A DNA stretch of 64,000 nt from Patellaria atrata CBS 101060 (lineage: Eukaryota), in assembly GCA_010093705.1 (NCBI GenBank), contig MU006093.1, positions 367,557 to 431,556 of the forward strand. The letters run 5' to 3'. A program made the translations under genes and the position numbers. The notes under the pieces were generated by a model. It made no database searches and had not been told where the DNA came from. It saw only the letters and a program-made list of their open reading frames with translations. This document shows positions 44,481 to 49,863 of this stretch, one piece after another. The first letter of the stretch is position 1. Every line of letters starts with the position of its first letter.

Positions 44481-47400
44481 ATGGGAAAGCGTGGGAACAA
44501 GAATGTACGTCTCACATGCTATCAATATCCCATAACGGCTGTAAATACAGCCACTGACATCACCGAGTAGGGGCGTGGACGTGGTAGAGGTAGAGGAGGT
44601 AGAGGAGGCGGCGGAGGAGGTTCTCGTGACGGCTGGCGAACCAATTGGACTGCCATCAGCAAGGAGCATGAGAAGTTTGAGAGATATTACAATAAATTGG
44701 GGATTCTGGAGGAGGGGGAGAAAGAGCAGTTTTGGGAGGCAATGAGGAGAGAGCTACCGAGTAGTTTTCGGTTTGCGGGAAGTAGAGGGTAAGTGGTTCA
44801 TCATATCATATACGAACCTTGAGCATAGTTTGTTAAACTTTTGCTGCCTTCTTCCTGTCTACAGACACGCCCTCGCTGTCCAGAAGCATCTCATCGACCA
44901 CTACATCCCCCAAATCACGTCCGTGCAATGGGAGGGCAAGAATGTTGACCCTCCACGCCCGATCGAGTGGTACCCTGAACGGCTCGCCTGGTCTATGAAC
45001 ACACCCAAACAGGTGATCCGCAAGTTTCCACCATTCTCGGCATTCCAAAAGTTTCTAGTATCAGAGACTACAGTAGGAAACATCACCAGGCAAGAGGTCG
45101 TTAGCATGATTCCGCCCCTGCTCTTGGATGTAAAACCAGGGATGAAAGTCTTGGATATGTGCGCCGCGCCCGGTAGTAAGACGTCACAACTCATCGAGAT
45201 GGTTCATGGAGGTGAAGAAGCAAGGGTAAGGGACATCATACGTAAAATCAAAACTGAGGAGGGCAGGGAATTAAGTCCTGATGGATTTGAAATTGAAGTG
45301 GAAAAGTCTTTCGCGGCTCAGGAGGGTGACTGGACCGATGATGGAAGATCGACCGGTCTACTCATTGCGAATGATAGTGACTATAGACGAGCACAGATGT
45401 TGGTACACCAGGTCAAGAGATTGAATTCGCCAAACTTGCTAGTTATGAACCACGATGCGACGATGTTTCCTTCTATCAAGCTTCCAACCCCGCCCGGTGC
45501 GCGAGGGAAGTATCTCAAATTCGATAGGATTTTGGCTGATGTACCCTGTTCTGGTGACGGTACAGTGAGAAAGAATCCAAACATCTGGAAGGATTGGCTA
45601 CCCGCAAACGCACTTGGGCTTCATACCACACAAACTCGCATTCTTGTGCGAGCATTACAGATGCTTAAGGTCAAGGGGAGGGTGGTGTATTCCACATGCA
45701 GTCTAAATCCTATTGAGAATGAAGCTGTCATCGCTTCAGCGATTGAACGTTGTGGTGGTAATACAAAAGTCAAAATTTTAGACATGAGTGATGCTCTACC
45801 TGGACTGAAGCGGAAACCTGGTTTGACTGATTGGAAGATTATGGACAGAAATGGGAAGATATGGGATTCCTACGAAGACGCAAGAGATGAGTTAGGCGAA
45901 GACAATCTGGGGCGAATTAGTGATACTATGTTTCCTCCTCCTCCCACCTCGGAGGACGAACGCTTACCCCTGGAGAGATGTCTCCGCGTATATCCTCATA
46001 TGCAAGACACTGGAGGGTTTTTCATCACTGTGCTCGAGAAGTTGACTGAGATCCGCGCTAGAAATGAGAATGCTCCTAGAACGGAAAAGTCTCAAATATC
46101 AGACAATGCTATTAAAGATGAAATGTCTGAAAGACCAGCACCGATATCAGATCTTGTTGATGAGATCAAGAATAGGACTGAGAACGGAGTTAAATCATAC
46201 GAGACGAGCGAAGCACTCGAGGCAGTTGCTCCTATCACAGAGCCGGATAACGGTAATTATTCTGCTGCAGTACGGCAAAATACTCCCCCACCCGCTAAAC
46301 GGGTTCTCGAAGAGCAGCTAGACGGTGGTTCTTCCCCGAAAAAAGCCAGACTGCACGGTACTGCTGAAAAGATTGAACACTGGCCACCACCACCTGCTAC
46401 ACTTGTAGATGAACGAATTCGGTCTTCGGAACCATTTGATGAGGTTATGGAAGAGGATACAACCGAAATTAAGGAAGAAAATGCACCTGCAATCAAGGAA
46501 GAAGATAAAACAGGAGCTAAAGAAGAAGATGCACCCTTAATTAGGCAAGAGACGACAGCATCGGATCGTTGCAAACCACCCACCAAAGAATACAGTGACT
46601 ACAAAAAGAAGTCGTCCGGCGTACACGAAGAACCATTCAAGTACCTTAACCCCGAGCATGTGGAGCTCGAAAGAATCTTCAAATTTTATACACTTTCGTC
46701 CCGGTTCCCGCGCGACCGCTTCATGGTACGCAACGCCACGGGCGAGCCGGTCAAATCAATATACTACACCTCAGTTCTCTCTCGCGAGATTCTGACGGAG
46801 AATGAGGGTAAGGGCCTAAAGTTCGTGCACTCGGGAGTTAAGATGTTCGTCAAGCAGGATGCACAAACTCCGGAGATGTGCCCGTGGCGTATCCAGAGTG
46901 AAGGCTTACCGATCGTAGAGGCTTGGGTCGGTGAGGAGAGGATTGTTCGACTGTACAAGAGAGAGACACTGAGAAAGCTCTTGGTCGAGATGTTTCCGAA
47001 AGTGGGCAATGAGAGTTGGAAGGAGCTAGGCGAGATTGGGGAGAGAGTCAGGGATATAGGTGGTGGATGTTGTGTGCTGAGGGTCGAGAAGAGCGATGCT
47101 GAAGATGGATTTGAGCAGCGAATTGTACTACCCCTTTGGCGTAGTGTATGGAGCTTGAACCTTATGTTGCCAAAGGATGAGAGAAAGTAAGTTTTCAAAC
47201 CGTTCCCTGCTTGTAGGGGATCAGTATTCACTAACAATATACTCACAGAGCAATGCTTCTCCGTCTCTTCAATGATGACACTCCCCTCATCGATCACTCA
47301 CAAAATCGTAATAAGCCACCAACACCACGAGACATCTCACCCTCGCTATCGGATGTCTCAATCGATAATGACGCTGAGGGAGGCGTCCTACTCGACCCGG

Positions 47401-47729
47401 CTGCTCGAGAAGCAAAAGCTGGAGAAGGCACAGCCGAAGCTCAAGAAGTGGAAGCAGCCAAAGCAGCGAACATTACAGCGACAGCCGCTGATGCCATGGC
47501 GGCGGATGTCGAAATGGGCGATGAGCCAACTAATGTAGTGACCGAAGAGCAGGCGATGAAGAACGAGGGGATGCTAAGGGCGCAGAGGTTTCATGAGAGG
47601 GATAAGGTGGATGAAACAGAGTTGGGTCAGGTGGGGGACGCGAGCGTGGGTCGCTGGGTTGGAGAAGATAAGCTTGATGGTGGAGAGGAGAGGAAGTTAG
47701 GTATAGAGGGTGGGGGATTTCAGGGATGA
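44481..47729 (+). CDS. NCL1: Multisite tRNA (cytosine-5)-methyltransferase (NSUN2/Trm4), 4 exons
   Basis: RGG-rich N-terminus; RQEVVSMIPP, DMCAAPGSKT, ADVPCSGDG, YSTCSLNP and DTGGFF motifs. Confidence 0.93.
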
Positions 47730-48183: not shown

Positions 48184-48192
48184 AAAAAAAAA
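48184..48192 (-). terminator. RNA polymerase III oligo-dT terminator of the tRNA-His gene
   Basis: Run of about 9 T on the minus strand, 5-6 nt after discriminator A73. Confidence 0.8.
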
Positions 48193-48197
48193 GAACT

Positions 48198-48355
48198 TGG
48201 CGTCACCCGGAATCGAACCGGGGTCGGAGCGGTAGTTGAGGAGTCCAGGTATACCTGGACGTTGATCCACAACGCTACGTGCTACCACTACCTGCTTGGA
48301 GGTTAGTGTGTGACGATCTTGATGATGGTGGAAGAGACGCTTACACCATGACACC
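48198..48355 (-). tRNA. tRNA-His(GUG) with two intervening sequences: a 53-nt GT-AG insert in the D-stem (48292-48344) and a 34-nt canonical 37/38 intron (48233-48266)
   Basis: After removing both inserts: GGTGTCA TG GTGT AGTGGTA GCAC G TAGCG TTGTGGC CGCTC CGAC CCCGG TTCGATT CCGGG TGACGCC A. This is a full cloverleaf with an intact B-box, followed by an oligo-T terminator. Confidence 0.9.
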
Positions 48356-49008
48356 TGATAGATGGGCTATCGTCCCATATGAGTTGAAAGCATTCGGACT
48401 GTTTGAATACTTATTATCTTGAAAATAAGCTGCTGATGGTAGGTCAGCCATGCATTGTCTGGAAGTGTGCTGTTAGCCGCAGGTGGGGTTATGGAGAGCA
48501 GGCTCTGGGTGATGCAAAGGCGCGTCAAAGAGCAAGCTTGGAGGCTACATTATACGGAGCTTTACTCGATGCTTGAGCCTGGAGAGACAACTTTGCACGC
48601 TTGATAACGGCTATCGCTAAAGGATATCTGGCCTTAAATTTGTCCCCAGAGCTGGATATTCGTTCTAACCTACTAGACTTCTATACCTTAAAGCGAGAGA
48701 CATATCGAGTGCTGCACAGTAGTGTTCGTATAAACCATCTCATCAAGTGTTCCATATCAATTCTCAGAGCTTCAGTTTGGCTTTTGCAAATTATTTTGGC
48801 TGATTGCTGGTTCGTGGGCTGCAGGAGAATATTGACTGCGAGATCGGAATAAGGTTATCTTATCAGTGATCTGACCTGTCGCTTAGTCACGTAATGCTTG
48901 GCATCAAAGCTCAAACCCCAGAGCCTCAACTTCGAGATTCTTCCGTCTGCAGCTTCCGCAGAAAATACTCAAACCACATCATCAACTACTCCATTACTAC
49001 TCGTCAAG

Positions 49009-49863
49009 ATGCCAAAATATAAGTTCTCCCGTCGCTTGCTCTTTGAAACTCTACTGACAATCTAAGAACTCTTCTGTAGGTTCACCCAATCGCGAAAAGC
49101 CGTTCAAATGCCCATACCTAACAGACTATAGGCGATTACTGCGATGTCTACCTCACCCACGACTCGATGAGCGTGCGCAAAGCCCACAACAGCGGTCGCA
49201 ACCACCTCCGTAACGTCGTAGAATACTACCAGCGTTCGTACCCTCGTACCCTTCCTCCACTCTCCCCCAATCCAACAAACCCACACTAACCCTCCCACGA
49301 CACCAGAAATCGGCCACGAAAAAGCCCAAAGCGTCATCGACTCCATCACTTCCTCCTACGCCGCAGCCGGCCAATCAGAAAGCAATCCAATGCTAAACCC
49401 ACCCCCCGGCGGACCCGGCGCCTTTCCACCACCCCCCTTCGGTTTCCCAGGTACCTTCCCCCTCCCCCCTTCTCACCCTCCGACTAACCAAACCCAAGCT
49501 GGCATCCCACCCCCCTTCCTCCCCCCAGGCGGACGGGGCATGCCTCCCAACCTCCCCTTCCCACCCCCTAACATGCCACCGGGCCAACTGCCTTTCCCGC
49601 CGCCTTTCCCCCCTCCAGGAAACATGCCGCAAGGTAGCGTTCCACCGATGGGCGGCACACCGCCGCAAGGGATGCCGTTTCCGCCGCCGAACATGCCGTT
49701 CCCACCGCCGCAGGGTATGCCGTTCCCGCCGAACATGCAGGGAGGACCGGGCGGTATGCCGTTCCCGCCGCAGGGGAGCCCGCCGGGTGGGATGCCTTTC
49801 CCGCCGCCCGGGCAGGGGCAGGGGAGTCCGCCGGGTGGTATGCCGTTCAGAGCTCCGATATAG
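49009..49863 (+). CDS. YHC1: U1 snRNP protein C (matrin-type zinc finger + Pro/Gly/Met-rich tail); intron 1 is AT-AC and exon 2 is 6 nt
   Basis: [54 protein letters not shown] reconstituted with introns 49019-49069 (AT-AC), 49076-49131 and ~49234-49306. A probable in-frame intron at ~49451-49498. Confidence 0.92.

Follow-up and report, generated by a model that had tools for sequence, protein, structure and literature searches.

A histidine tRNA gene of Patellaria atrata with a putative spliceosomal intron in its D-stem

A 64,000-nucleotide (nt) stretch of the genome of the fungus Patellaria atrata CBS 101060 (GenBank assembly GCA_010093705.1, contig MU006093.1, positions 367,557 to 431,556 of the forward strand; hereafter the window) holds a 71-nt transfer RNA (tRNA) gene for histidine, tRNA-His(GUG), on its minus strand (48355-48198), which is legible only when two inserts are taken out. 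One of these is a canonical tRNA intron at position 37/38. The other, 53 nt long, interrupts the D-stem and has the borders and the internal signals of an intron of messenger RNA (mRNA). We read the locus as a working tRNA-His(GUG) gene whose 53-nt insert would be removed by the spliceosome, and put the probability of this reading at roughly 65%. Excision exactly at GT-AG borders, and thus splicing itself, is what we infer from the sequences of the window gene and of the related genes described below.

An earlier note on this DNA, made from the letters without database searches, had described a tRNA-His gene interrupted in its D-stem by a 53-nt insert at 48344-48292, and the minus strand reads as described, to the base. 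The gene and the elements around it are arranged as follows, in the direction of transcription:

48406-48418, minus strand: AT-rich, TATA-like stretch that precedes the tRNA 5′ end by 51-63 nt, a candidate promoter element for RNA polymerase III (Pol III)
48345-48355, minus strand: exon 1, tRNA-His positions 1-11, comprising the 5′ acceptor strand, U8, G9 and D-stem bases 1-2
48292-48344, minus strand: 53-nt GT-AG intron of spliceosomal type, between tRNA positions 11 and 12
48267-48291, minus strand: exon 2 (25 nt), tRNA positions 12-37, comprising the rest of the D-arm, the 5′ anticodon stem and the anticodon GTG
48233-48266, minus strand: canonical 34-nt tRNA intron of endonuclease type at 37/38, with an internal hairpin of 7 base pairs (bp)
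48198-48232, minus strand: exon 3 (35 nt), tRNA positions 38-73, comprising the 3′ anticodon stem, variable loop, T-arm, 3′ acceptor strand and A73
48184-48192, minus strand: run of nine T (T9), a Pol III-type terminator 5 nt past the tRNA 3′ end

When both inserts are deleted, the second at the canonical 37/38 position, ARAGORN returns a tRNA-His(gtg) of 71 nt, in keeping with the earlier proposal that removal of the insert restores the cloverleaf. The predicted fold has a 7-bp acceptor stem, which exon 1 forms with 48199-48205 in the ARAGORN drawing, a 4-bp D-stem and a 5-bp T-stem. Deletion in silico of the 53 nt alone leads the program to report a tRNA with an anticodon-loop intron; left to place this second intron unaided, it calls Asn(gtt) and not His(gtg), and the histidine identity therefore follows from setting the second intron at its canonical 37/38 position. 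A73 and the 4-nt variable loop of exon 3 agree with what we take to be the features of eukaryotic tRNA-His. The B box, also named in the earlier note, is intact at 48209-48218, where it matches GTTCGATTCC in a motif scan, and the oligo-T terminator named there is the T9 run, read at 48192-48184. On the raw 64-kb window ARAGORN found no tRNA genes, with intron mode on or off, and nothing in the window reached the Rfam gathering score, the 3′ part of the gene attaining 16 bits against a tRNA gathering score of 29. The expectation that standard finders would miss the gene was thus borne out.

The borders of the 53-nt insert are fixed by the tRNA, not by the choice of an analyst. The insert opens with the 5′ splice site GTAAGC (48344-48339, minus strand), which fits GTRNGY, carries the branch motif ACTAAC (48307-48302, minus strand) with a predicted branch A at 48303 that is followed by 11 nt, and closes with the 3′ splice site CAG (48294-48292, minus strand), use of which yields the correct tRNA. 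These are the donor, branch site and acceptor that had been pointed out in the first description. The triplet GTA is repeated at both junctions, giving four registers with the same product, and one of the four is GT-AG. When all segments of 53 nt on both strands of the window were passed through a test for three signals (an initial GTRNG, a final YAG and a YTRAY whose branch A lies 7-30 nt from the end), 3 of 127,894 passed, a count that includes true introns and the 53-nt insert itself. The splice signals of the insert are not due to chance.

A local standard is provided by the neighbouring NCL1 gene. When the deposited protein was aligned to the window by tblastn (stretches of 100% and 99.4% identity), gaps between the matching stretches could be read as two introns. 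These are ~62 and ~76 nt long and both start with GTAAGT, and the one at ~47187-47248 carries CACTAAC. Other intron candidates in the window that are flanked by open frames measure 48-72 nt. The insert is also free of any T run longer than two. Its length of 53 nt accordingly resembles that of local mRNA introns, as had been claimed, and in all sequence respects it is a typical intron of this neighbourhood.

Related genes were sought in metagenome contigs with a pattern taken from the D-arm and anticodon of the window tRNA-His (19 fixed letters, 6 free). Ninety-seven loci matched. ARAGORN called 80 of them as uninterrupted tRNA-His, which we take to be of prokaryote type because they encode G-1 and have no introns; two (L074 and L089) were called in intron mode only, and 15 were not called. 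The uncalled loci comprise six without tRNA context, three cut at the ends of their records, two that are defective or truncated (L013 and L071) and four of fungal type with an insert. With L089 there are five fungal-type tRNA-His genes, four of which carry an extra GT-AG insert outside 37/38. A fungal-specific form of the pattern had no match in the genome-contig or viral-contig collections.

The first of the four, L050, has a D-stem insert of 54 nt, placed at 12/13 by the GT-AG rule and hence one base from the window site, with the signals GTAGGA, ACTAAC and CAG. The other three carry inserts in the T-loop at 55/56, of 58 nt (L023), 50 nt (L044) and 57 nt (L063), with GTAAGT, CTAAT or TTAAC, and TAG; these are exact GT...AG inserts without register ambiguity, and lie at the following positions:

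L044:3051-3100: GT-AG intron in the T-loop, 55/56
L063:3051-3107: GT-AG intron in the T-loop, 55/56
L023:1448-1505: GT-AG intron in the T-loop, 55/56

In L050 and in the T-loop introns no other AG comes between the branch and the terminal one. With the inserts removed, ARAGORN calls a 71-nt tRNA-His(gtg) from all six genes, that of the window included. A search for tRNA halves split by GT...AG inserts had been suggested in the earlier note, and L050, L023, L044 and L063 are such genes. The sequence-testable parts of its spliceosomal-type interpretation all held. The insert has a full set of U2-type signals and lacks the bulge-helix-bulge (BHB) motif discussed below, and the GT-AG inserts of the four other genes are new support.

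ARAGORN and Rfam overlooked each of the five interrupted genes (window, L050, L023, L044 and L063); with the Rfam tRNA model a hit was obtained for L089 (47.2 bits) but for no interrupted gene. In an intron-aware scan, 398 candidate GT...AG inserts were cut from the window and the five loci and ARAGORN was run on each product, which brought to light no interrupted tRNA in these sequences beyond the five genes already known. Comparison of the five fungal-type loci with the window by tblastx showed no flanking genes in common. L044 has as its neighbour an Ino80-subunit-1 gene that is closest to those of Lophium mytilinum (63%) and of Pleosporales (57-59%), and its source is therefore another Dothideomycete. 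The HET-domain gene of L050 has best hits that are 29-44% identical and belong to several classes (31-37% where coverage reaches at least 40% of the query); L050 is assigned to a filamentous ascomycete of unplaced class. The tRNA-His of L050 has no T run of its own, and a piece resembling a T-arm and 3′ acceptor strand, followed by a T8 run, lies ~100 nt downstream (within L050:30-176, minus strand). ARAGORN at default settings makes no call on this piece, which could be a second, interrupted or degenerate tRNA of a dimeric unit.

Away from 37/38 the splicing endonuclease needs a BHB motif, and the inserts are far too small for self-splicing. In a test for the strict form (hBHBh′), the 53-nt insert gave 0-3 of 4 central pairs and an outer helix of 0 bp across its four registers, and at all ectopic inserts, in every register, 0-3 of 4 central pairs and outer helices of 0-1 bp were obtained. 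Outer helices of 4-6 bp were found for the four 37/38 introns tested. The 34-nt insert (48266-48233) qualifies as an intron at 37/38, with an outer helix of 4 bp in the same geometry test and a fold of -12.3 kcal/mol. A BHB or endonuclease-type identity was consequently rejected for the 53-nt insert, which lies at 11/12 and lacks a BHB in all four registers.

These results bear on the possibility that the insert is an ectopic tRNA intron that is cut out by the endonuclease or another nuclease and ligated, its GT-AG borders being incidental. The gene already relies on the endonuclease for its 37/38 intron, the register ambiguity would allow both D-stem inserts to be placed at 11/12, and ectopic introns of endonuclease type exist in a red alga, according to excerpts of PMC3728597. 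Such a route is nevertheless very improbable, given that a BHB is absent in any register, that the T-loop inserts are unambiguously GT...AG and that the conserved parts of the T-loop intron are its splice-signal ends. Moreover, each of the three insert families can be set in a GT-AG register, shows G at +5 and has a YTRAY branch that precedes the intron end by 10-12 nt, for which the joint chance is ~1e-4 or less per insert. Removal by the spliceosome is favoured because no BHB is present, because self-splicing is excluded by size and because the T-loop intron is conserved exactly at its splice-signal ends.

The T-loop family allows an estimate of selection. L044, L063 and L023 are orthologous loci with flanks that align, being 85-90% identical over 100 nt upstream and 65-84% over 200 nt downstream. 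Their exons are identical at 71 of 71 positions in every pair. In the T-loop intron the first 14 nt and the last 12 nt are invariant, while its middle part is 38-88% identical between pairs and invariant at 38% of positions; the 37/38 intron shows a 3-nt indel. At the rates of the flanks, between 7 and 17 changes would be expected per 71 neutral bases. The complete lack of exon changes against this expectation argues for purifying selection on a gene that bore its intron throughout the divergence of the three loci.

More distant comparisons show changes of the kind expected of paired bases. Between the window gene and L050 there are 15 differences over the 71 positions, each of them in a stem and none at an unpaired position; the differences make up six compensatory pairs, two changes to or from G-U and one change at a stem position that is unpaired in the window gene, L050 and L089. 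Ten differences with four compensatory pairs separate the window gene from L089, and 17 with seven compensatory pairs separate it from L044. Across the three comparisons the number of differences at unpaired positions is zero or one.

The earlier note had named an untranscribed locus with splice signals that are not conserved in relatives as a dead copy with a chance insert. The signals are kept in the T-loop family. For the insert of the window the comparison covers L050 alone, where the signals are present and the interior cannot be aligned. The alignment score of these two inserts is 30, against a mean of 29.1 (standard deviation 5.4) for shuffled sequences, a value equalled or exceeded by 896 of 2000 shuffles. 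Beyond the signals, alignment thus lends no support to homology between the inserts.

The origin of the 53-nt insert was followed up in contigs from two source-like DNA runs (X1 and X2). They contain no second copy of 48292-48344 at 80% identity or more, and a recent origin from an introner family was rejected on the ground of this single copy. Nor do they contain a second match to the 35-nt 3′ exon at that threshold, although matches of 30-33 nt turned up. This outcome argues weakly against a recent multi-copy origin and against an identical uninterrupted twin. A 33-nt match in the same contigs overlaps only the first 12 nt of the insert. It has 3 mismatches over 48333-48365, a segment made up of 10 leader nt, exon 1 and those 12 nt; its second site reads as Myb-type coding sequence on the opposite strand, and by a rough estimate the match lies near the edge of chance.

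The state of the exons speaks to the alternative that the window locus is a dead copy, a tRNA-His gene recently killed by an intron-like insertion while uninterrupted copies decode histidine. Splitting of the A box could abolish correct initiation, gene finders report no tRNA at the locus, and L089, the closest gene, has no D-stem insert. We consider this alternative unlikely. The exons show no decay, since their differences lie in stems and are compensated or wobble changes, apart from the one position mentioned above, and the terminator and B box are intact. Comparable inserts are present in four of the five fungal-type tRNA-His genes of the metagenomes, and among the 97 matches there is no insert-free gene with the same sequence at positions 12-37. 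The T-loop orthologues, with 71 of 71 exon positions unchanged and flanks that diverge by 10-35%, indicate that a gene bearing an ectopic GT-AG insert can stay functional over the long term. To this may be added, as a weak point, that the two DNA runs hold neither a source for the insert at 80% or more nor a second match to the 3′ exon.

Several signals bear on the polymerase. The intact B box, the T9 run and the lack of internal T runs of four or more would fit transcription of the whole unit by Pol III; the 188 nt that extend from -30 to the 3′ end of the tRNA contain no such run. The 53-nt insert divides the A box; when its spliced form is compared by eye with the two junctions, 8 of 11 letters are kept at the 5′ junction and 7 of 11 at the 3′ junction. 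AT-rich stretches lie ~30-60 nt upstream in other fungal-type genes too, and five of the six genes have T-run terminators 5-16 nt past the tRNA. In L023, L044 and L063 it is the B box that is split, and the intron starts with the invariant 14 nt, which hold the B-box-like sequence GTTCAACCCC at a distance of 4 nt from the would-be start of the split B box. The motif GTTCRANNCC occurs twice in the 128,000 positions of the window, one occurrence being the tRNA's own B box. The T-loop intron motif may reflect selection for a Pol III promoter element borne by the intron.

Splicing is normally coupled to RNA polymerase II (Pol II), and from this general knowledge another explanation can be built, in which the spliceosome removes the insert from a Pol II or read-through transcript, RNase P and RNase Z release the tRNA, and splicing gates its output. 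The disturbed internal boxes (the A box in the window gene, the B box in L023, L044 and L063) would agree with such a host transcript, as would the 85-90% conservation of ~100 nt upstream of the genes with T-loop introns. It is disfavoured by the T-run terminators of five of the six genes, by the 188 nt free of T runs of four or more in the window gene and by the B-box-like motif, which is kept in the T-loop introns near the original position. Furthermore, no open reading frame of at least 70 amino acids overlaps the intergenic stretch that bears the tRNA gene, on the minus strand or on the plus strand, and fission-yeast U6 is a Pol III transcript that gets spliced. We hold a Pol II host to be quite improbable.

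A number of points weigh against a working, spliceosome-dependent gene at the window locus and have to be set beside the evidence above. An AAG located 3 nt before the CAG, and 8 nt from the branch A, is the first AG past the branch; it could compete as acceptor, leaving three extra bases in the D-stem, and after a 50-nt deletion up to this AAG, ARAGORN still calls a tRNA, 3 nt longer. L089, with 10 of 71 differences the gene most like that of the window, has a 26-nt intron at 37/38 and no other. As to the comparisons between genes, 19 of the 71 compared positions were preset by the search pattern. The D-stem inserts of the window and L050 lie 1 nt apart and cannot be aligned beyond their signals, so a shared origin is not established, and two independent insertions could have come after the changes that make up the covariation. 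Finally, if transcription from a type-2 promoter started according to the 3′ half of the A box, exon 1 would not be transcribed.

On the reading that we prefer, that of a functional gene spliced by the spliceosome, maturation might proceed as follows. Pol III would start upstream of 48355, aided by the upstream AT-rich element, the intact B box and the partial A box at the junction of exon 1 and the intron, and would stop at the T9 run. The nuclear spliceosome would then take out the 53-nt intron by way of GTAAGC, ACTAAC and CAG, and the joining of positions 11 and 12 would let the D-arm fold. End processing would follow, and the TSEN endonuclease with a ligase would act on the 34-nt intron at 37/38 only after folding of the tRNA body. 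G-1 and CCA would be added as in other eukaryotic tRNA-His. Because the endonuclease takes its measure from the tRNA body once folded, and works in the cytoplasm in budding yeast, the D-stem intron is expected to be removed first, in the nucleus.

Taken jointly, the loci permit a broader interpretation, which we judge slightly better than an even bet. According to this, maturation of tRNA-His would depend on the spliceosome in at least two lineages of Dothideomycetes and in one unplaced filamentous ascomycete. The inserts would make up a third class among nuclear tRNA introns, with more than one gain (at 11/12 and 12/13 in the D-stem and at 55/56 in the T-loop); they would be spliced from Pol III transcripts ahead of the endonuclease, and the T-loop intron would supply the B box.

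In the literature searched, with subscription-only papers outside the search, no account was found of a tRNA gene with a spliceosomal intron. Term look-ups in the tRNAscan-SE 2.0 paper, two reviews of tRNA diversity and a survey of fungal tRNAs returned no mention of a spliceosomal tRNA intron in the portions of text that they cover. Passages of two reviews (PMC10275265, PMC13149111) call tRNA splicing independent of the spliceosome. Among non-coding RNAs, the hosts of spliceosomal introns listed in an excerpt of PMC5855946 are U6, U1, U2 and U5 (the last three in Rhodotorula) and ribosomal RNA (rRNA), and fungal U3 small nucleolar RNA carries introns according to part of PMC5832005. By these excerpts, mRNA-type introns are known in genes for non-coding RNA, and the new part would be a tRNA host in which such an intron stands beside one of endonuclease type.

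A close parallel is U6 of Schizosaccharomyces pombe, whose mRNA-type intron was described by Tani and Ohshima (1989, 1991) and treated by Canzler et al. (2016), as summarised in PMC5855946. As in the window gene, the intron of fungal U6 genes is, by that summary, short, has canonical 5′, branch and 3′ sites and sits in a small, structured gene of Pol III type that ends in a T run; fungal U6 introns are likewise conserved in sequence only at their signals. According to the title of Frendewey et al. (1990), a match to the B box lies within the fission-yeast U6 intron, and in this respect, so far as a title tells, the T-loop introns of L023, L044 and L063 are similar. There are three differences. 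A tRNA does not belong to the spliceosome's active site, and an explanation by reverse splicing at the catalytic centre, as for U6, is inapplicable; the window gene has a second intron, of endonuclease type; and splicing of S. pombe U6 has been shown experimentally, while that of the window tRNA-His is predicted from sequence.

The introns of U1, U2, U5, rRNA and U3 resemble those described here in being GT-AG introns found computationally by their signals and in their patchy occurrence across fungal lineages, to the extent that the excerpts cover them. The hosts U1, U2, U5, U3 and rRNA are Pol II or Pol I transcripts. Unlike the window gene, none of these hosts is a tRNA and none has two splicing systems acting in one precursor. 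The tRNA introns of Cyanidioschyzon merolae and of archaea also lie outside 37/38, the D- and T-arms included, sometimes occur in pairs and are missed by finders (excerpts of PMC3728597 and PMC4033280). In the same excerpts they are defined by a BHB and lack GT-AG or branch signals, the reverse of what is seen in the 53-nt insert. The 34-nt insert is of the canonical nuclear 37/38 kind as portrayed in passages of PMC10275265 and PMC13149111. Unlike such introns, the 53-nt insert at 11/12 is unrelated to the anticodon loop and has mRNA-type signals. The window fungus belongs to the same class as the hosts of certain introner-like elements. These elements, reportedly described from Dothideomycetes by van der Burgt and co-workers in 2012, are said to be a route by which new spliceosomal introns arise and to exist as near-identical multiple copies when young; unlike them, the 53-nt insert has no second copy at 80% or more in X1 and X2.

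If the reading is correct, it would amount to a new route of tRNA maturation, and would couple the splicing machinery to the capacity for translating one amino acid. Should the interrupted genes be the sole tRNA-His(GUG) genes of their genomes, all decoding of histidine would hang on splicing of pre-mRNA type. The genes would also offer a natural system for studying how introns are gained in such RNAs, and how a Pol III transcript that is highly structured and has no cap is handled by the spliceosome. They would further expose a blind spot of tRNA finders, by which isotypes could appear to be absent from fungal genomes. For L023, L044 and L063, GTTCAACCCC would be a second example of a promoter element in a spliced-out intron, after that of fission-yeast U6.

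In the window, the tRNA-His gene is flanked by two plus-strand genes. The convergent neighbour (44481-47726, plus strand) encodes a tRNA 5-methylcytosine (m5C) methyltransferase of the NCL1/NSUN2 family, an assignment confirmed by an Atlas look-up of the protein, and its stop codon lies ~470 nt from the tRNA gene. The 744 residues of this protein used as a query are 100% identical to a public protein recorded from P. atrata CBS 101060, and the named relatives that come next, from other Dothideomycetes, stand at ~60%. The presence of a tRNA-modifying enzyme beside an unusual tRNA gene is probably a coincidence.

Two of the metagenome loci outside the fungal group also have unusual structures. 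At L071:607-644, the 5′ half of a prokaryote-type tRNA-His breaks off directly behind the anticodon, where AT-rich DNA unrelated to it takes over; this half looks truncated, as at an integration site, or like part of a split gene. In L074 (minus strand, ~410-434) the anticodon of a tRNA-His is followed by a long, GC-rich insert, which gives the gene the look of an intron-bearing tRNA from an archaeon. In the window, a long Pro/Gly-rich open frame with repeated units of 14 residues runs from 49222 to 49863 (plus strand), downstream of the tRNA locus. An 85-nt match with 9 mismatches to 49132-49216 was found in run X3, which comes from another organism and covers only unrelated parts of the window; its word depth is 481, far above that of the other pieces from X3. 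The segment is an element, conserved or repeated, that lies where the proline-rich gene region starts.

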